Part shown: one piece after another, positions 20,202 through 29,080 of the stretch | Position numbering within the stretch: position 1 is the stretch's first letter | Layout: each line of letters starts with the position of its first letter | Assembly: GCA_039679545.1 (NCBI GenBank) | Contig: JBDKUT010000090.1 | Coordinates: forward strand, 1-43,540 | Origin: Thermotogota bacterium | GTDB taxonomy: Bacteria; Bipolaricaulota; Bipolaricaulia; UBA7950; UBA9294 | DNA: 43,540 nucleotides | Reading direction: 5' to 3' | Position numbers and translations under genes: made by a program | The notes under the pieces: model-generated | Databases searched by the model: none | Told to the model about the DNA's origin: nothing | Seen by the model: only the letters and a program-made list of their open reading frames with translations

Positions 20202-22292
20202 CTAGAACTTCATCAGGATGTCGACAACGGCCGCACCGTGAACATCGGCAATCACGGGGTTGAGGTCGATCTCGCGAAGCTCTGGAAGGTCGACGCCGAG
20301 CCTGCCGACTGCCTGAAGCGTTCGAACGAGGGCCGGGAGATCGACGGCCTCCCGGCCACGGAATGCCTCGAGAAGTCGGAATGCCCGGATCGAGCGAACC
20401 GTCCGTTCCGCCTGGCCCAAGGTAATCGGGGCGACCGCAAAGGCGACGTCGCGGAGCGCTTCGACCAACGTGCCTCCAATGCCGAACATCGCAACCGATC
20501 CGAACGCCGGATCCCGCTCTAGACCGTAGATCAGCTCTCGTCCGGCAAGTGTCTTCTGCAGCATGATGCGGGCTCCGATCGGGCCCAGGGATTCCGCCAC
20601 CTTGCGGAGTTGCCGGATCGCGGCGGCGAGCTCGGTTTCGTTCTTGATGCCGGTAAGCACGGCCCCCCGCTCGAAGCGGTGGAAGAGGAGAGGCGAGTCG
20701 AGCTTCGCGACCATCGGGAAGCCGAGCGATTCAACGACAGCGCGGCCGGGCCGATCGCCCTTCTCTACGTACGCATACGGGCAGACGCAAACCCCGTACG
20801 CGGACAAGATCTCGGCCCCCTGGTCGAAGTAGAGCCCCTGCTGGCCGGCGGCCCTTGCAGTCCGGATCACAGCCTGCGCTGCGGAAAAGTCGGAGGTCGA
20901 GAGTCCCTCGGCGAGGCGGCCTTCCTCGCGCACGGCGCGCGCGCGGTTGAGCACGGAGAGCGCATCAACCGCTGTTTCGGGCATGGCATACACGGGGAGC
21001 TTGGCACCCCGGAGCCGCCGCACGGTTTCGGTGGCCTCGTCGCTCAGGGTGCAAACGAGAACGGGCTTCTCCGTCTGCGCCTGAGCGACCGCGACGATAC
21101 CGTCCGCAACAGTTTCCGGCGAGTCCTTCAGGACGAGCGGCGGACGGAAGATGACGATCGCCGCGTCGGTCTCTTCGAGTCCAATTTCGAGGCTTCTCCG
21201 GTAGTCCGCCGCGCCGGCCGTCGCGATCATGTCGATCGGATTGCCAAGTCCGGCCTCAGGTGGGAGGAACTCTGCGAGCCGGCGCCGCACGTTCTCGGAG
21301 AGTGCGGGCACCTCAATCCCGAACTTCTCACACGCATCCGCTGCGATGATTCCCGCTCCTCCGGCGTTGGTCAGAATCACGACCCTGCCGTCGCGAGGAA
21401 GGACTCCGCGCTCGAGCGCCCGCAACGCCGTCAGCGTCTCCTGAATCGTCGAAACGCGAAGCGCTCCGCACTGTTGAAGAAACGCATCGACTACGGAGTC
21501 GGAGCTCGCAAGCGAGCCGGTGTGCGATGCTACCGCCGCTGCTCCGGCTTCGGTTCGTCCGACCTTGAGGACCACAACCGGCTTCCGACGCGAAATCCTT
21601 TCGACCAGAGGTCTGAACTCCCGTGGGTTTGCGAAGCTCTCGAGGTACAGGAAAATCGCTCTGCACGCGGGGTCGTTCTCCAGGTGCTCGAGGAAATCGT
21701 TCTCCGACAGGCCCGCCCGGTTCCCGAGGTTTACGAAGAGCGAGACGCCCAGTCCGGCATCCTCGAAGCACTCAAGCAGTGTCTCCCCGACGGACCCGCT
21801 TTGAGAGACAAAGCCGATCTCCCCTCCCTGTGGGAACCACCGTGAGAACGAAGCGTTCAGTCGGATGCCGGGGATGCTGCGGATGATCCCCATGCAATTC
21901 GGTCCGACAACGTTCAGGTTGTAGCGCTCGATCAGCGTCCGAAGCGCCGCCTCACGGGCCACGCCCTCCGGGCCGCTCTCCTTGAAGCCCGCGGTGATGA
22001 TGACCAGATTCCGAATGCCACGGCGTCCGCAGTCCTCAACGGCATCGAGCGCCAGGTCTCGATTCACGGCGAGGATTCCGAGATCGACGTCTTTCGGCAG
22101 CGCGCTGATGCTCGGGAAGCATCGGATCCCGTTGACGTCCTCGTACTTCGGATTAACAGGGTAGATCTCGCCGGAGAACCCGCACCGCTTCAGGTTGCGC
22201 AGGATCTCCCCCGCGACCGACGCCGGCTTCGGGCTTGCTCCGACGACGACAACCGAGCCCGGGGAGAGAAGTCCCGAAAGGTCCCTACCCAT
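20202..22292 (-). CDS. ADP-forming acetate/acyl-CoA ligase family (CoA-binding + ATP-grasp)
   Basis: 'VVGAS', 'GPNCMG', 'SQSG', phospho-His 'SHTGSL', 'NAGGAG', 'NPID', and C-terminal 'EIDLNPV'. Confidence 0.9.
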   Translation of the reverse strand: MGRDLSGLLSPGSVVVVGASPKPASVAGEILRNLKRCGFSGEIYPVNPKYEDVNGIRCFPSISALPKDVDLGILAVNRDLALDAVEDCGRRGIRNLVIITAGFKESGPEGVAREAALRTLIERYNLNVVGPNCMGIIRSIPGIRLNASFSRWFPQGGEIGFVSQSGSVGETLLECFEDAGLGVSLFVNLGNRAGLSENDFLEHLENDPACRAIFLYLESFANPREFRPLVERISRRKPVVVLKVGRTEAGAAAVASHTGSLASSDSVVDAFLQQCGALRVSTIQETLTALRALERGVLPRDGRVVILTNAGGAGIIAADACEKFGIEVPALSENVRRRLAEFLPPEAGLGNPIDMIATAGAADYRRSLEIGLEETDAAIVIFRPPLVLKDSPETVADGIVAVAQAQTEKPVLVCTLSDEATETVRRLRGAKLPVYAMPETAVDALSVLNRARAVREEGRLAEGLSTSDFSAAQAVIRTARAAGQQGLYFDQGAEILSAYGVCVCPYAYVEKGDRPGRAVVESLGFPMVAKLDSPLLFHRFERGAVLTGIKNETELAAAIRQLRKVAESLGPIGARIMLQKTLAGRELIYGLERDPAFGSVAMFGIGGTLVEALRDVAFAVAPITLGQAERTVRSIRAFRLLEAFRGREAVDLPALVRTLQAVGRLGVDLPELREIDLNPVIADVHGAAVVDILMKF

Positions 22293-22836
22293 TCCCTCTC
22301 ATTCCCTTCACCATGAGCCAGACGAGGCCCACCATGATTAGGAGATCCCCCATGCTAAACGCCGTCGCCCCCGGAATCCACGACGGCAAGAAGAGCCAAT
22401 CCCCGAGGACGTTGAGGTGCGAGCCTTCCCCCATCAGGACGACGTTACCGTAAGTTCCGTCGGTGAGCAGGGCCGCAGCGACAGAGCCGAGGCCTGCTCG
22501 CTCAAGTGCCGCCACCGACGAGGGCATGTACCCTCCGTTCGCTAGGACGACCACCACATTGAGCAGTGCACCAGCTCCGATCGCCCACACCGGCCGGACA
22601 GAGAGGTTCAGGAGAAGCCAGAGGAAGAGAATGGCGTAGGACAGGACGTGCAGCTCCGGCGTAGCAAAGGTGACGAGCGGACGTTCGGAGAAGAGCGGGA
22701 AAATGAGGATCTGGATCAGGAGAGCAAGCGGGATCAGCCAGAGGGCTCGGAAGGGAAGGGACGGAAGGTTGCGAAGACGACCACGCAGGACGTATCCGAG
22801 CAGGATCCCTACGCCAAGCGCATAGAGGAAGATCAT
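22285..22836 (-). CDS. DUF5317-family membrane protein (LspA-like Asp pair)
   Basis: 'GYVLRGRLRNL', 'LNVVVVLANGGYMP' and 'LGDW...AFSMGDLLI', with about 5 TMs. Confidence 0.8.
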   Translation of the reverse strand: MIFLYALGVGILLGYVLRGRLRNLPSLPFRALWLIPLALLIQILIFPLFSERPLVTFATPELHVLSYAILFLWLLLNLSVRPVWAIGAGALLNVVVVLANGGYMPSSVAALERAGLGSVAAALLTDGTYGNVVLMGEGSHLNVLGDWLFLPSWIPGATAFSMGDLLIMVGLVWLMVKGMRGNG

Positions 22837-22846
22837 CCGCTGGCGC

Positions 22847-24139
22847 CTAAGCCGCTACGGGCGCCGCGACCTCAATGCCCGTCTTGCGGAGGACTTCGAG
22901 CAGGGCATCGGCCACCGCAGGATCGAGGTCCTTGCCCCGCATCTCTTCGATCATGTGCAGGGTTTCCTCGCGCGAGAACGCCGGGCGGTATGGCCGGTCG
23001 GTCACGAGAGCGTTGTAGATGTCCGCCGCGGCGATGACCCGCGAGATCATCGGGATTTGCTCGCCGACCAGTCCATCCGGGTACCCGCTACCGTCCCAGC
23101 GCTCGTGTTCGTGGCGCACGGCGTCGGCGACACCGGAGTAGATCTCTAGCCCCGAAATGAGCTCAGCGCTCGTGACTGGATGGTTCTTCATCACCGCCCA
23201 CTCCTCGTCGTCGAGAGTCCCCGGTTTAAGCAGGATCGAGTCGGGCACGGCGACCTTGCCAATGTCGTGTACCTTGGCCGCGATCTGGATGCGCTCGAGG
23301 TCTCCGTGGCCGAATCCCAGCTGTTGCCCGATTCGGACAGCCAAGTCGGCGACTTCCGTTGAGTGAACTGCTGTGTAGTGGTCACGCGCATCGAGAAGCT
23401 GGGAGATCTTTTCGAACGTCTGCCTTGCCTCAGTCTGTAGTTTGAGATAGCTTCGGAACGAGACGTGGACGAGAAAGAGCGGGAAGACCGCGAGGAACAC
23501 GTGCCAGACCGAGAGGGTGTAGAGGACCGCGAGGAGGAGGGCTGAGACACAAAGAACGACGTACTGAACAAAGAACTGCCGGAGGCTGCCAAGCAAGGAA
23601 CTCCAGAACGGTTTTCTCTCAGAGAGCGAGATAATGCCCATCACGAGAGAGATGTTGACAACGAAGTAAACCAGGAACGTGCCAACGGCGAGCGCGTAGT
23701 CCCTTGCGTCGGCCAGTACGAGATTCGGACGCCCGAATGCGCGGAGAAGAAGCCCGGCAACAGCGACGGTAACGACCAATTGGCAGACGTTGAAGGTAAT
23801 GGGTGCGACGGCGTCAACCCAGCCTCTTCTGCGGTTTCCCGTACGAAGAAGGACCTCAGAGACCAGAGACGATATCAGGACAAGCGGGATGGCAAGGTTC
23901 GGTCCGAGGATGAACAGCGCTGAAAGGTAGATGGCAATGGAGCTAGAGATCTCCCACTTGTAGGCAGGAATCCACGTCGCGTAGACCTCTGCGAGGACCG
24001 CCAGAATAGCAAAGATCCCGAAGATCGTGAGCTGCTGCGGGGAAGGGGGCTCGAGGACGCTAAGGCTGTATCCAAGCGCTACAGCGGCCGCTAGTGAGAC
24101 AATGCAGACGAGAAGCACCGCACGAACCGGAAGTCTCAT
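22847..24139 (-). CDS. Multi-TM sensor fused to an HD-GYP phosphodiesterase domain
   Basis: About 7 hydrophobic segments, then 'RDHYTAVHS', 'HDIGK', 'HEHERWDGSGYPDGL' and 'AADIYNAL..DRPYR'. RBS GGGAGG precedes ATG 24139. Confidence 0.92.
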   Translation of the reverse strand: MRLPVRAVLLVCIVSLAAAVALGYSLSVLEPPSPQQLTIFGIFAILAVLAEVYATWIPAYKWEISSSIAIYLSALFILGPNLAIPLVLISSLVSEVLLRTGNRRRGWVDAVAPITFNVCQLVVTVAVAGLLLRAFGRPNLVLADARDYALAVGTFLVYFVVNISLVMGIISLSERKPFWSSLLGSLRQFFVQYVVLCVSALLLAVLYTLSVWHVFLAVFPLFLVHVSFRSYLKLQTEARQTFEKISQLLDARDHYTAVHSTEVADLAVRIGQQLGFGHGDLERIQIAAKVHDIGKVAVPDSILLKPGTLDDEEWAVMKNHPVTSAELISGLEIYSGVADAVRHEHERWDGSGYPDGLVGEQIPMISRVIAAADIYNALVTDRPYRPAFSREETLHMIEEMRGKDLDPAVADALLEVLRKTGIEVAAPVAA

Positions 24140-24262
24140 CCAGCCTCCCATGCGCGGCCTGCGTCCTCAAGCGTAACGCGCAAACCATGGTACTCCAGGA
24201 CATGCGACCAAGCCAGTTGGTGCGGGAACTAGTGGCGACGCTCCGACAGACCGCCTGAATTC

Positions 24263-24400
24263 CTAGCCAGGATGCCACTTGAAGCTCTCGCACAGCAGCA
24301 GCCCCAACATCGCCAACGACACCAGGTAGTACGCCGCCTTGCCGCCCAACAGCTTCTTCACTTTCTCCTCCCCGTTCCGGTTGAACCCACACCACTTCAT
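24263..24400 (-). CDS. Small prepeptide copy 2: MKWCGFNRNGEEKVKKLLGGKAAYYLVSLAMLGLLLCESFKWHPG (45 aa; not in the ORF track)
   Basis: RBS AAGGAG, ATG 24400 and TAG 24263. It has a basic N-terminus, a hydrophobic core and a polar tail, and is near-identical to the adjacent copy. Confidence 0.8.
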   Translation of the reverse strand: MKWCGFNRNGEEKVKKLLGGKAAYYLVSLAMLGLLLCESFKWHPG

Positions 24401-24431
24401 GCTCGTCTCCTTGTCTCCGTCTCCCGATCGA

Positions 24432-24569
24432 CTAGCCAGGATGCCACTTGAAGCTCTCGCACAGCAGCAGCCCCAACATCGCCAACGACACCAGGTAGTA
24501 CGCCGCCTTGCCGCCCAACAGCTTTCGCACTTTCTCTTCCGCCTTGCGATTGAATCCGCCCCACTTCAT
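24432..24569 (-). CDS. Small prepeptide copy 1: MKWGGFNRKAEEKVRKLLGGKAAYYLVSLAMLGLLLCESFKWHPG (45 aa)
   Basis: RBS AGGAGGT, ATG 24569 and TAG 24432. It is the first gene after a sigma70-like promoter. Confidence 0.8.
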   Translation of the reverse strand: MKWGGFNRKAEEKVRKLLGGKAAYYLVSLAMLGLLLCESFKWHPG

Positions 24570-24633
24570 GCCTACCTCCTCATCATCGGATCTCGCTGCG
24601 CCCCGTTGATAGAGGGTCGCAGCCTGGTGATAT

Positions 24634-24662
24634 AGAATAACCATCCATGCTTCTTTCATCAA
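24634..24662 (-). promoter_or_regulatory. Sigma70-like promoter for the prepeptide/HD-GYP/DUF5317 unit
   Basis: TTGATG-N17-TATTCT on the minus strand, with an AT-rich upstream tract (TTATATCTAATATGCAAAG). Confidence 0.65.
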
Positions 24663-24865: not shown

Positions 24866-24894
24866 TTCGCGAAGACCAATTGAGAGGTGTCAGA

Positions 24895-25179
24895 GTGCGA
24901 GAGTACGAGATTGTTTACGTGATTCGGCCGGACTTGACCGATGAGCAGCGATCAGCAAAGGTAGAGCGGATCCAGTCGCTGATCACCGAGAACGGCGGGG
25001 ATCTCGTGAAGACCGAGGAGTGGGGACGGCGCGTCTTGGCCTACGAGATCCGCCACTATACGGACGGAATCTACGGCTTCACGGAGTTCCGTCTTCCCCC
25101 CGCCGCCGTGAAGGCGATCGAGGGGCGGCTGAACATCGACGAAGAGCTTCTTCGCTACCAGATCGTGGTGAAGAACTAG
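24895..25179 (+). CDS. rpsF: 30S ribosomal protein S6
   Basis: 'MREYEIVYVIRPDL...WGRRVLAYEI...GIY'. GTG start after GAGAGGT, in the canonical rpsF-ssb-rpsR order. Confidence 0.95.
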   Translation: MREYEIVYVIRPDLTDEQRSAKVERIQSLITENGGDLVKTEEWGRRVLAYEIRHYTDGIYGFTEFRLPPAAVKAIEGRLNIDEELLRYQIVVKN

Positions 25180-25185
25180 AGGGCC

Positions 25186-25605
25186 ATGTCTGCAAGCCTG
25201 AACCGCGTCATCCTGATCGGAAATCTCACGGGAGACCCCGAGCTGCGGTATACCCCCGGTGGGACCGCTCGGGCGCGGTTCTCCATCGCCATCAATCGGC
25301 AGTACAAGGACGCATCTGGACAGCTCCAAGAAGAGGTGACGTTCGTCCCAATCGTGACGTGGGGCTCCCAGGCGGAGAACTGCGCCAATTACCTACGAAA
25401 GGGACGCTCGGTCGCCGTCGAGGGTCGGCTCCGGATCGATTCTTTCGAGAATGCCGAAGGTGAGCGGGTCAAGATCACCGAGGTCGTTGCGTCAACCGTC
25501 CAATTCCTCGGCGGGCCGACGCGATCGAGCGACGAGCCGGGCACGGTAAGCGCCCCGGCACCGAGTGACGAGAGTCAGCCGCCTGAGGAGGAGGTTCCTT
25601 TCTAA
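25186..25605 (+). CDS. ssb: Single-stranded DNA-binding protein
   Basis: 'LNRVILIGNLTGDPELRYTPGG', 'VAVEGRL', and acidic tail EEEVPF. Confidence 0.97.
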   Translation: MSASLNRVILIGNLTGDPELRYTPGGTARARFSIAINRQYKDASGQLQEEVTFVPIVTWGSQAENCANYLRKGRSVAVEGRLRIDSFENAEGERVKITEVVASTVQFLGGPTRSSDEPGTVSAPAPSDESQPPEEEVPF

Positions 25606-25608
25606 GTC

Positions 25609-25845
25609 ATGTTCCACAAGCGAAGACGAAAGTGCCGTGCGTGCGAAAACCAGGTAACTCTGGACTACAAGAAGCCCGAAGAGCTGAAGCAGTACATGAA
25701 TCGGCTCGGCAAGATCCTCCCCAAGCGAGCGACGCGCCTCTGCGCGAAGCATCAGCGTCGCCTGGGCGTAGAGATCAACCGCGCTCGCAAGCTTGCTCTG
25801 CTTCCTTATGTCGGGGAGAGAGAAGCGATGAAAGTTCGTCGCTGA
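25609..25845 (+). CDS. rpsR: 30S ribosomal protein S18 (Zn-binding C+ type)
   Basis: 'CRAC...LDYK...GKILPKRAT.LCAKHQR...ARKLALLPY'. Confidence 0.95.
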   Translation: MFHKRRRKCRACENQVTLDYKKPEELKQYMNRLGKILPKRATRLCAKHQRRLGVEINRARKLALLPYVGEREAMKVRR

Positions 25846-25878: not shown

Positions 25879-26871
25879 ATGAGGAATGACCGACTCGCGG
25901 GGTGGCTTGCCGGTCGAGCGACTCCCCCGGAACCTACTCAAGGAGCCAAAGACCTCCTCGACGTCCCAGACAGGGCACCCGAGGAGGTCATTCTTTCCGG
26001 GGTTCAGGAGCCGGAGTTTCCCGGGACTCTCACGTTTGCGTCCGAGGTACCGTTCGACCTTCGCTTCCCGTCGGTGGGGAACCTGCGGACAAGCGTAGAG
26101 CGCATGCTTCACCTGCTCTACGGCATCGGACCCTGCCGCAGTGAACAGCTCCGCCGGCAGGGGTACGAGACGCTTGCCGACCTCACATCCCATCCGCAGT
26201 GGGGCGAAGGCGCGCGGGCGCTGCTTGACAAGTGGGGACGCCGGTGGGACGCCAAGGCCGTCTTCCACACCTTGAGAACGTGGCTGCCGGCGTCAGATCC
26301 CCTGTTACTGGCTGCCCTCGGGCTCGTCCCGCGGGAGCACATCCTCTTCTTTGACCTCGAGACGTTGGGGCTGTCGAACGCCCCGATTTTTCTCATTGCA
26401 ACGGCTCGTCTTGCGGACCGTACGCTCCTCGTCCACCAGCACCTGGCCACCTCCTTGGGAGGGGAGCGCCCTCTTCTCGACCGCTTCAGCCGTGAGCTGG
26501 AGAAGACGACGGCCCTCGTCTCCTACAACGGTAAGGCGTTCGACTGGAACCTCCTGCGGGAGCGTTCGGCCTACTACAGCCAGCGTCTCCCTTCCGTAGA
26601 GATTCACGCGGACCTTCTGCATCATGTCCGCCGGCAATTCGTGGGGCTTCTTCCGGACGCGCATCTCGCAACAATCGAAGAGAACGTGCTCGGGGTTCGA
26701 CGAGCGAACGACCTCCCGAGCTCGCTCGTTCCGTCGTTCTACTCGATGTACCTCGAGACTGGAAGCCCCGCGCCGCTTCGGCCGATCCTCGACCACAACC
26801 GGCAGGACATCAAGAGCCTCGCACTCCTTCTGCGCACGCTCCTCGGAGAGGCGCCCGATGCGACTCGATGA
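25879..26871 (+). CDS. RNase H-like (DEDDh) exonuclease, YprB/MrfB-like, with HhH motif
   Basis: 'FFDLETLGL', 'SYNGKAFD', 'HADLLH', 'HNRQDI', and HhH 'LYGIGP'. It overlaps the downstream helicase gene. Confidence 0.85.
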   Translation: MRNDRLAGWLAGRATPPEPTQGAKDLLDVPDRAPEEVILSGVQEPEFPGTLTFASEVPFDLRFPSVGNLRTSVERMLHLLYGIGPCRSEQLRRQGYETLADLTSHPQWGEGARALLDKWGRRWDAKAVFHTLRTWLPASDPLLLAALGLVPREHILFFDLETLGLSNAPIFLIATARLADRTLLVHQHLATSLGGERPLLDRFSRELEKTTALVSYNGKAFDWNLLRERSAYYSQRLPSVEIHADLLHHVRRQFVGLLPDAHLATIEENVLGVRRANDLPSSLVPSFYSMYLETGSPAPLRPILDHNRQDIKSLALLLRTLLGEAPDATR

Positions 26872-29080
26872 GTTCTTGTCTGCGCTTGACTGCGACCCGA
26901 GCTACCAAGGCCAGGTGGTCTACGCGGCATCCGTGCCCGCCCACGCCGCGGAGCACGCGGAGATTGAGCTGCGTCCGGAGGTTGCGGCGACCCTTAGCGA
27001 GCGCGGCATTCGTCTCTACCGCCATCAGGTTGAGACGATCGAGGCCCTGCGCGCCGGCCGCGACGTCATCCTTACCACGCCCACCGCGTCCGGGAAGACC
27101 CTAGCGTTCCACATCCCTACCGTCGAGTGGTTGAGCGCCGACCCGAAGGCCACGGCCCTCTACCTCTACCCGCTCAAGGCGCTCGCCAACGACCAACTCG
27201 AGAAGCTGCGCGCCCTCGACGAGGAGTGCGGCGCGGATCTCTGTCCGAGCACGTACGACGGCGATACGCCACCGCAGAAGCGAGCTTGGATCCGGCGCTC
27301 TGCTCGCGTCGTACTGACGAACCCCCACGCGCTCCACCAGTACCTGCCGTGGCACCACCAGTGGGCTCGCCTCTTTGCGAACCTGAAGCTCGTCGTCCTC
27401 GACGAGGCGCATCACTACCGCGGTGTGGTCGGCGGGAACGTCGCAGAGCTCCTCGCTAGACTGTCTCGCGTCCTCAAGCACTACGGCGCTCGGCCTCAGT
27501 TTGTCGTCTCGTCGGCCTCCATCGCGAACCCCGAGGATTTCGCACGGGCTCTCACGGGGCGAGACGCCGTGTCGGTCGACGAGGACGGGTCGGCGCGCGG
27601 GCCGCGGAGCGTCGTGTTCTGGGATCCGATGGCCGATCCGTCGTCGTCGATCACCCGGCAGGCGGCAACGTTGCTCTCCTTCCTGACGGATCGGGGAATG
27701 CAGACGATCTGCTTCGCGCGCTCCCGCGTCATGGCCGAGCGGATTGCGAGCGCGGCAAGGCGCAACTCCTCAACGACGGCCATCCAGTCGTATCGCGCCG
27801 GTTACCTCGCACAAGAGCGAAGGGATCTCGAGGCCGACCTCCGCAACGGGCGCCTGCGCGGCGTCGTGTCGACGTCGGCCCTCGAGTCGGGCATCGACAT
27901 TGGAGGGCTCGACGCAGCCATCCTTGTCGGGTTCCCCGGGAGCCTACTCTCGGCGTGGCAGCAGGCGGGGCGCGCGGGTCGAGGATCGCGGCCATCGCTC
28001 GTCATCTACATCCCGTATGAAGACCCTCTCGATCGGTACTTCCTCCGCGACCCGGAACGGTTTCTCGCCTACACAGGCGAGCGTTTGGTGCTTCCGCACC
28101 GGACCCTCCGCCAACGTGCGGGACACCTCGCCTGCGCGGCCGCCGAACTCCCTCTGCGGTCGGAGGAGATCGCCGCGGAAGACGAAGAAGCGATGGCTGC
28201 GCTTCGCGAGAGTGGCCTCCTCGCCAGCACCCCGTCCGGAGCCATCTACCGCGGGTTGCGTCGGGCGCACGAGGCGTTTCCCCTCGAGGAGATGGCGGGG
28301 GAGACCGTGCGCTTGGTCTGCGCGGGTCGGACGCTCGAGACCATGGATCCGGTCCGCGCCCGCCGCGACGCGTATCCGGGCGCCGTGCTTCTTCACCGTG
28401 GGGAAACGTACGTCGTTCAAGCTCTCGACCTCGCCAAAGGCATGGCAACCGCGGTGCGCGAGGACGTCGACTATTCGACGCAGGGGCTTCGGACCAGCGC
28501 CGTCGAGATTCTCTCCGCGGGGACCTCGGTCCCGTCCGGTGGGACCCACGTCGCCCATGGGCGCGTCCGCGTGACGGAGTCGTTCGTGGGGTACAAGGCG
28601 ATCCACGACGACCGATCCGCCTCTCTTCATCCGCTCGCACTTCCCCCTCATGCCTACGAGACCGACGGCGTCTGGGCAACGTTCCGGAACCTCCCGCTGG
28701 AGATCGAGGGGACCGATCTCCTCGGCGCCTTGCACGGGGCGGAGCATGCGCTGATTTCGATGGCTCCGCTCCTCGTCCTCTGCGATGCTGCCGACGTCGC
28801 CGGCGTATCCATGTTGCTCCATCCGCAGACCGGCGCACCCACCATCCTCCTCTATGACGGAATCGAAGATGGGGCGGGGATCGCCGAGGTCTTGTTCGGG
28901 GAGTGGCCGAGGCTGGCGGCGGCGGCGCACGCCATGGTCTCTCAGTGCCCATGCGACGCCGGCTGTCCGGCATGCCTCCTCTCTCCGCGCTGCGGCAGCC
29001 AGAACCAACCCTTGTCAAAGCCCGGAGCAATGCGCATCCTTGCCCCGTCGGCCCCCGCGAGCCGGAAGGAGGACGCATGA
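26858..29080 (+). CDS. DEAH-box helicase with C-terminal DUF1998 4-Cys (MrfA/YprA/SftH/Hrq1 family)
   Basis: 'TPTASGKT', 'YPLKALANDQ', 'DEAH', 'QQAGRAGR', and C-terminal 'CPCDAGCPACLLSPRC'. ATG at 26858. Confidence 0.93.
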   Translation: MRLDEFLSALDCDPSYQGQVVYAASVPAHAAEHAEIELRPEVAATLSERGIRLYRHQVETIEALRAGRDVILTTPTASGKTLAFHIPTVEWLSADPKATALYLYPLKALANDQLEKLRALDEECGADLCPSTYDGDTPPQKRAWIRRSARVVLTNPHALHQYLPWHHQWARLFANLKLVVLDEAHHYRGVVGGNVAELLARLSRVLKHYGARPQFVVSSASIANPEDFARALTGRDAVSVDEDGSARGPRSVVFWDPMADPSSSITRQAATLLSFLTDRGMQTICFARSRVMAERIASAARRNSSTTAIQSYRAGYLAQERRDLEADLRNGRLRGVVSTSALESGIDIGGLDAAILVGFPGSLLSAWQQAGRAGRGSRPSLVIYIPYEDPLDRYFLRDPERFLAYTGERLVLPHRTLRQRAGHLACAAAELPLRSEEIAAEDEEAMAALRESGLLASTPSGAIYRGLRRAHEAFPLEEMAGETVRLVCAGRTLETMDPVRARRDAYPGAVLLHRGETYVVQALDLAKGMATAVREDVDYSTQGLRTSAVEILSAGTSVPSGGTHVAHGRVRVTESFVGYKAIHDDRSASLHPLALPPHAYETDGVWATFRNLPLEIEGTDLLGALHGAEHALISMAPLLVLCDAADVAGVSMLLHPQTGAPTILLYDGIEDGAGIAEVLFGEWPRLAAAAHAMVSQCPCDAGCPACLLSPRCGSQNQPLSKPGAMRILAPSAPASRKEDA

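Follow-up and report, generated by a model that had tools for sequence, protein, structure and literature searches.

We analysed a contig of 43,540 nucleotides (JBDKUT010000090.1 of assembly GCA_039679545.1, here called the window) from a Thermotogota bacterium placed by GTDB in the Bipolaricaulota, and describe on its minus strand a cassette of tandem peptide genes, a membrane sensor protein with an HD-GYP domain and a DUF5317 protein. The peptides form a genuine gene family, with members in Bipolaricaulota, Bacillota, Actinomycetota and Chloroflexota, and peptide, sensor and DUF5317 are one module. The reading that we favour, at a probability of roughly 0.55, is that this module is a peptide-signalling family in which the tail of the precursor, cut off by DUF5317, binds the MASE9-like domain of the sensor and switches the turnover of cyclic di-GMP (c-di-GMP). 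The parts of the cassette are the following (SD, Shine-Dalgarno sequence; ORF, open reading frame; TM, transmembrane):

24662-24634, minus strand: putative promoter TTGATG-17 nt-TATTCT, 8 of 12 positions matching the sigma-70 consensus; presumed start of the cassette
24569-24432, minus strand: peptide precursor gene 1, 45 residues (MKW, hydrophobic core, CESFKWHPG), with SD GAGGAGG upstream
24400-24263, minus strand: peptide precursor gene 2, 45 residues, tail CESFKWHPG as in gene 1, with SD AAGGAG
24151-22847, minus strand: sensor ORF (TM part and HD_5), 434 residues, or 430 from the SD-supported start at 24139; sensor residue numbers below refer to the 434-residue ORF
24139-23432, minus strand: N-terminal part of the sensor, a MASE9-like integral membrane sensor domain, hypervariable; predicted peptide receptor
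23431-22847, minus strand: linker helix and HD-GYP domain (Pfam HD_5, E 1.5e-37); predicted c-di-GMP phosphodiesterase
22836-22285, minus strand: DUF5317, 183 residues, five predicted helices (PF17248, E 6e-34); predicted processing peptidase
22401-22399 and 22347-22345, minus strand: invariant D146 and D164 of DUF5317, within its LspA-like core

The preliminary description had seen two 45-residue ORFs with their own ribosome-binding sites, the build of signal peptides and identical tails, followed by an HD-GYP protein and DUF5317, and all of this stands. Both peptides have a basic N-region, a hydrophobic core and the tail CESFKWHPG, and their genes are identical at 127 of 138 nucleotides. Chance does not explain them: a Bipolaricaulota profile that includes the window's own peptide, run on 27,715 short ORFs from the window genome, scores these two only (52-54 bits, the next reaching 7). 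It had also been proposed that such genes escape annotation and can be found by scanning around DUF5317, and held-out profiles bear this out. A profile built from Bipolaricaulota only finds ORFs of at least 12 bits at 19 of 73 DUF5317 loci of other phyla, one built from the other phyla finds them at 22 of 60 Bipolaricaulota loci, and the controls yield none (0 of 30 LspA loci, 0 of 73 shuffled loci). The loci were sampled as 60 of 132 matches in the phylum and 80 of 121 from a pattern scan, those with flanking sequence. Across the phylum the peptide profile matches 105 of 151 genomes, with 1-5 copies each. All but one of 92 aligned peptides follow a single consensus, with a basic N-region, an uncharged span (median 15 residues) and the tail motif [G/A/S/C]-[A/E]-x-x-[K/R]-W, to which 0-7 residues are added. 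Counted from the Lys, position -4 is small (G in 63, A in 17) and position -3 is A in 78 and E or Q in 12 of 91 peptides; two variable residues come next, then K/R, then W (86). Of the 92 members, at most one is matched by any Pfam or NCBIfam family. The tail Cys, included in the earlier account of the peptide, turned out to be incidental, 3 of 91 anchored peptides having one in their tail region; in the window peptide it sits in L-L-L-C with no small residue ahead of it, unlike the lipobox of an LspA substrate. A lipoprotein or thiolactone reading of the peptide was ruled out because the Cys is not conserved. A leader peptide acting by attenuation was likewise rejected, since peptides also lie downstream of or divergent from DUF5317, in arrays, and behind their own riboswitch.

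The linkage of the three parts holds across phyla, as the proposed architecture with overlooked peptide genes would have it. DUF5317 is present in 129 of the 151 Bipolaricaulota genomes, and its nearest named homologues are from this phylum. Counted jointly at loci with at least 2.5 kb of upstream DNA, on which the profile was trained and among which a few genomes appear twice, peptide and MASE9-like sensor are both present at 42 of 51 DUF5317 loci in Bipolaricaulota and at 37 of 60 elsewhere, and neither at 6 and 10, respectively; where there is a sensor there is nearly always a peptide as well (42 of 43 and 37 of 38). Bacillota loci picked by their sensor, one of them in the training set, carry a peptide ORF of at least 12 bits just upstream in 24 of 30 cases (27 at 10 bits). 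Among 251 Bacillota genomes the sensor is found in 78 of the 86 that bear DUF5317, and by itself in 34 of the other 165 (Fisher p 5e-28, inflated by kinship). The genes do not keep a fixed arrangement: peptide-sensor-DUF5317, sensor-DUF5317-peptide, or DUF5317 divergent from peptide-sensor. Four of five Bipolaricaulota genomes with a lone DUF5317 have the sensor elsewhere, with peptides directly upstream of it, and in all five Chloroflexota genomes where peptide and DUF5317 lack an adjacent sensor, a MASE9-like domain is encoded elsewhere. Among 14 control genomes, DUF5317 and MASE9 both occur in the same two, T. maritima and T. thermophilus, and a cultured carrier is Desulfosporosinus nitroreducens. 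At five Chloroflexota loci (L098, L109, L157, L162, L166) an AAPFRW-type peptide immediately precedes DUF5317, and next comes a soluble GAF-GAF-GGDEF protein (Pfam on L109 and L162), with no MASE9 at the locus.

MASE9 (PF20972; TM1467 of T. maritima, HdgA of S. venezuelae) is described in a preprint as a membrane domain of eight segments in which an Asn and aromatic residues are conserved, and which is fused to HD-GYP or GGDEF-EAL (bioRxiv 10.1101/2021.11.05.467447). The membrane domain of the window sensor has no Pfam match, PF20972 included, and its assignment comes from relatives and structure. PF20972 matches 30 of 62 aligned homologues (best E 2e-10); in the ESM Atlas the domain falls with MASE9 clusters (feature score 0.90), and its structure aligns to an HD/MASE9 cluster with a TM-score of 0.87 over 223 residues. 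The sensor alignment (A4) has N117 invariant and F116 and N162 above 90%; the predicted fold, the conserved Asn and aromatic positions and the HD-GYP fusion are all present. The membrane domain had been foreseen, with some seven segments; by eye on the alignment there are about eight. This is the sole MASE9-like protein of a genome with eight HD-GYP matches and nine ORFs with a GGDEF-like motif. The catalytic domain, the best-conserved part of the protein, has HDIGK at 295-299, DGSGYP at 353-358 and the late metal Asp D377, and is a predicted c-di-GMP phosphodiesterase. A phosphodiesterase in place of a histidine kinase is correct for the window locus but does not extend to all relatives, where the same peptide also precedes GGDEF-EAL, GGDEF-HD-GYP and HisKA-HATPase outputs; the outputs found are HD-GYP, GGDEF-HD-GYP, GGDEF-EAL, GAF-GGDEF-EAL and HisKA-HATPase. 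Four Actinomycetota histidine kinases with a MASE9-like domain have the peptide just upstream. Loci with the peptide family directly upstream of MASE9-like histidine kinases are L280, L281, L290, L294 and L102.

DUF5317 had been called LspA-like, which applies to its C-terminal core and not to the full-length model. Seven residues are invariant among 150 homologues (G89, N93, P105, D146, S161, G163, D164), and residues 100-161 are predicted to lie outside because they are poor in K/R. A model of residues 55-182 (pLDDT 92) has S. aureus LspA, 6RYP, as rank 1 of 48,161 chains, with a weak Z (5.2; rmsd 2.7, 83 residues), and 5DIR as rank 5. Rescoring of Foldseek's 31 top chains in VIA gave 5.8 for 6RYO, 5.2 for 6RYP and 4.8 for 5DIR, with the next at 3.1; LspA residues 1-58 are unaligned with the model. 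In hhalign against 30 LspAs of the phylum, D146 and D164 fall on the two Asp of LspA (P 0.007 and 0.0008), which we take to be its catalytic pair; in split tests, 1 of 60 shuffles did as well in one and 8 of 60 in the other. As LspA had been named in advance, the fold match is suggestive, though no proof. The comparison suggests that DUF5317 has a catalytic core distantly like that of LspA, joined to an N-terminus of another kind and carrying an insert of 40 residues. It is not a member of the LspA family: a scan to E 0.1 returns PF17248 and no PF01252, and a true LspA is a separate gene in 61 of 61 genomes, the window genome included. Searches of PDB sequences with DUF5317 profiles gave nothing below E 0.2 and no LspA, and the ESM Atlas searched by features, DUF5317 clusters excluded, gave no usable match. 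DUF5317 is fused to MFS transporters in 10 of 25 long matches scanned and, in single cases, to GAF-GGDEF, MFS-PAS-GGDEF and TPR (fused examples are L113, L121, L147, L160, P0185, P0187, P0204 and P0250).

Peptide tail and sensor domain are both hypervariable, and they appear to have been exchanged as a block against DUF5317, in few independent events. Window and same-genus locus L033 share 95% identity in HD-GYP and 88% in DUF5317 but 59% in MASE9; against L032 and L034, which have GA-type tails, MASE9 drops to 45% with DUF5317 at 82-84%, while E-type loci from other genera are closer to the window in MASE9 (50-59%). At the DNA level identity to L032-L034 is 42-69% over the first 600 nucleotides of the sensor gene and 72-95% from the catalytic domain onward. 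Trees of 21 loci recover the genus as one clade for DUF5317 (100/100) and HD (84/90), and reject its monophyly for MASE9 (p-AU 1e-63). The nine loci with E/Q tails group together as a clade in the MASE9 tree (96/98), an arrangement rejected by DUF5317 (p-AU 1e-5) and not by HD (0.28). Among 24 further loci, 8 of 8 with E/Q tails fall inside the MASE9 E clade and 15 of 16 others outside. Two genera (g11 and g2) have sensor domains in different clades, and there the tails differ too.

Outside the Bipolaricaulota, the peptide genes may in part stand under c-di-GMP control. Rfam finds an aptamer of the c-di-GMP-I clan 33-40 nucleotides before the peptide start at 13 of 33 such loci (10 RF03167, 3 RF01051), all Chloroflexota by title, and none in the window or in 20 Bipolaricaulota loci. 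At L115 (5435-5515) the aptamer lies downstream of DUF5317 and ahead of a peptide gene, and several of the Chloroflexota riboswitch loci have two different tandem peptides, with GAGxRW and EAGxRW tails. The number of peptide genes in the window itself may be underestimated. Two copies, as first described, is what the assembly holds, but read depth suggests about 4-5. In unitigs from two runs of one study, one of which may be the source of the window, the 93-nucleotide unit common to the peptide genes reaches 4.4-4.6 times the flank depth and the junction between peptide genes 3.0-3.4 times; depth is not copy number, but read as n and n-1 these values fit about 4-5 copies. The two-copy array is probably an assembly collapse of this number. 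Relatives have up to five peptide copies, or runs of N, at the array position.

How would such a cassette work? The precursor would insert with its N-terminus in and its C-terminus out, and DUF5317, a predicted aspartyl peptidase, would cut it at the outer membrane face, beside the small residue four places ahead of the Lys. The receptor for the released tail of 8-9 residues, (C)ESFKWHPG, would be the MASE9-like domain of the adjacent protein, and binding would switch the predicted phosphodiesterase, either on or off. Strain specificity would come from the peptide-sensor types, and feedback would run through the riboswitch. In its widest form, to which we give a little less than even odds, the proposal is of an ancient fourth peptide-signalling family with parts unrelated to Agr, Com and RRNPP, in which a linear KW pheromone matured by DUF5317 acts through MASE9 on c-di-GMP synthesis or breakdown, with swappable kin-type alleles and riboswitch feedback, in four phyla.

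What speaks against this reading? Several points do, which are taken up here and in the next three paragraphs together with rival readings. The window's own peptides stay below 12 bits with the profile of the other phyla. A second [K/R]W stands at the N-terminus of 42 of 46 peptides from Bipolaricaulota and of 8 of 46 from elsewhere, an arrangement like that of a membrane anchor, and none of the five sensor columns that separate the tail types is in a predicted outer loop. These features would suit an uncut single-pass membrane microprotein that binds MASE9 within the bilayer and is destroyed by DUF5317 as an off-switch, making the signalling internal to the cell, by the logic of MgrB-PhoQ. 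The [K/R]W at both ends, with an uncharged span of median 15 residues between, and the position of the type-separating residues in membrane or cytoplasmic segments are in its favour, and it accounts for linkage, co-variation and riboswitch as well as a released signal does. Ligand binding within the membrane is also suggested by Galperin and Chou (bioRxiv 10.1101/2021.11.05.467447). We nevertheless find the microprotein doubtful: the variation is concentrated in a short polar tail behind a conserved pair of small residues, the Glu at -3 in the window's clade shortens the helix, and amplification to 3-5 gene copies would make more sense for a signal that is released than for a subunit in fixed stoichiometry. 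A Lys/Trp pair at sensor positions 65-66 was considered as partner of the tail Glu and dropped, as W66 also accompanies A-type tails (L319, L323, L328) and the loop is predicted to be cytoplasmic.

The proposed cut by DUF5317 meets difficulties of its own. The full-length model (pLDDT 95) has no Foldseek match in the PDB at E 0.001 and no LspA, only helical hairpins, among the 50 VIA matches listed. For the C-terminal model the runner-up to 6RYP is an unrelated chain at Z 5.0, both being below the tool's guide value of 8, and Foldseek puts 5DIR first at an E of only 2.9. The hhalign probability is just 5-25%, and the helix motif by itself was equalled by 8 of 60 shuffles. The small residues at -4/-3 (G 63, A 78 of 91) resemble a signal peptidase I site. 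A general signal peptidase might instead free the tail, with DUF5317 modifying, exporting, clearing or co-receiving the peptide, as its weak fold evidence, its fusions to MFS, GAF-GGDEF and TPR, and the five Chloroflexota loci with peptide and DUF5317 ahead of a soluble GAF-GAF-GGDEF protein would allow. It is an unlikely arrangement all the same: the two invariant aspartates of DUF5317 map on the LspA pair, the MFS fusion fits processing plus export too, and the specificity of signal peptidase I excludes a cut after Glu or Gln, which stand at -3 in 12 of 91 peptides.

The sensor raises two further points. MASE9-like loci of Actinomycetota have an adjacent peptide in only 13 of 28 cases (two of the loci were in the training set, and two loci of unpublished genomes were left out); these genomes have several MASE9-like sensors each. 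The HD-GYP domain had been described as intact, which is so for its HD, Lys, GYP and late Asp, but EHE at 348-350 (E348 at window positions 23108-23110) takes the place of HHE, departing from HHExh[D/N]GxGYP, and this change may alter phosphodiesterase activity. It is shared by 55 of 58 Bipolaricaulota proteins; His is kept in 14 of the 15 proteins from other phyla that have the motif (another 7 fall outside the pattern) and in the six other motif-bearing HD-GYPs of the window genome. A distribution of this kind would fit a circuit with a Bipolaricaulota EHE HD-GYP that is inactive or acts on another substrate, as a cyclic-dinucleotide-binding effector. We regard that as very improbable, given that the best-conserved domain of the protein retains HD, the next Lys, the second His, GYP and the later Asp, and that Glu is itself a possible metal ligand.

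Finally, the co-variation expected between tail and sensor was found in part. The partial Mantel r for the 17 loci of the family is 0.43 between tail and MASE9 and 0.31 between tail and DUF5317, but over all 39 paired loci tail-MASE9 falls to 0.12, below the 0.29 of tail-DUF5317. The tree groups were named only after the identities had been seen, the new E/Q loci come from genera that were already E-type, and L323 has an A-type tail yet lies inside the E clade.

The idea of a single promoter for the cassette gains from the recurrence of the element, with the same spacing, in four of 11 aligned relatives (L032, L034, L036, L037), and loses from its 8/12 match, which is below the threshold of the promoter scan; that promoter/terminator scan gave one match, on the plus strand before rpsF, and no terminator. 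L032 and L034 are nearly identical in DNA as far as the -10 box and diverge immediately beyond it. The one RNA run compared had no contig on the cassette locus. A 76-residue form of peptide ORF 1 was discarded: the TTG from which it would start coincides with the predicted -35 box, and SD and homologues favour the start at 24569. Codon 14 of the peptides, after an SD-like purine run (24528-24545 and 24359-24376), is GTG, and ATG in many relatives, and could be the start of a 32-residue form. L049 and L091 have the short form only, and the 13-residue MKW extension echoes the KW of the tail. The neighbours of the cassette are:

22292-20202, minus strand: ADP-forming acyl-CoA ligase, whose gene overlaps the end of DUF5317 by 8 nucleotides
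24880-25845, divergent from the cassette: rpsF-ssb, then an rpsR-like ORF (rpsR named by eye)

The ligase adjoins DUF5317 at 19 of 140 loci, all within the window's own family, and is likely a co-transcribed passenger outside the module. The position of the cassette between acyl-CoA ligase and divergent rpsF-ssb is common in the family. Further on (25879-29080) are an RNase_H_2 protein and a DEAD/DEAH helicase with an MrfA zinc-binding domain, a pair that presumably resembles the MrfB-MrfA repair pair.

If the scheme is right, it offers a candidate ligand for MASE9 sensors and a function for DUF5317, c-di-GMP turnover would be under peptide control with no transcription step in between, and the LspA-like core would gain a second role, away from lipoproteins. 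The Bipolaricaulota, often found in anaerobic digesters and sediments, would then possess a means of communication present nearly throughout the phylum, DUF5317 occurring in 129 of 151 genomes. DUF5317 is not named in the literature searched, from which most subscription papers fell outside; that on MASE9/TM1467 consists of the Galperin and Chou preprint only, and an account of the module was not found in it.

How does the cassette compare with known systems? The main text of the MASE9 paper names no ligand and does not contain the word 'peptide' (bioRxiv 10.1101/2021.11.05.467447), and hdgA mutants of S. venezuelae have no developmental phenotype, their authors suspecting that activating signals are missing (PMC6205966). 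In contrast to known MASE9-HD-GYP proteins, a candidate ligand and its processor are here encoded beside the sensor, and EHE stands for HHE. With LspA, DUF5317 appears to share a predicted helix-helix-strand-helix core over LspA residues ~60-155, a GxxxN helix motif, the motif F-[NS]-x-[AG]-D-x-x-I-x-x-G and two Asp predicted at the outer face. It differs from LspA (PF01252; 6RYO, 6RYP, 5DIR) in that the N-terminal 60 residues are unaligned, two other N-terminal helices being present, in a 40-residue insert after NGGxMP, in the lack of DR after GN, and in presumed substrates without a lipobox Cys.

ComQXP of Bacillus has a short mature peptide, taken from the C-terminus, in which a Trp is nearly invariant, as well as a membrane receptor and pherotype-like variation. 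The cassette resembles it in its short Trp tail, membrane sensor and type variation, but its precursor has a hydrophobic signal-like core, receptor family and output differ, and no prenyltransferase recurs among its neighbours.

The logic is also that of Agr, a precursor with a membrane processor and a membrane receptor, and some relatives of the cassette even have a histidine kinase output. In agr a hypervariable region from agrB to agrC defines the groups (PMC6834553); peptide and sensor domain of the cassette likewise vary together as a hypervariable block, with one exception and in few events. Family profile scans match no part of the cassette to an Agr family. Compared with Agr, the cassette has a peptide without the conserved ring-forming Cys/Ser, a processor predicted to be of aspartyl type and not AgrB, and encoded outside the hypervariable block, and an output, c-di-GMP turnover, of its own.

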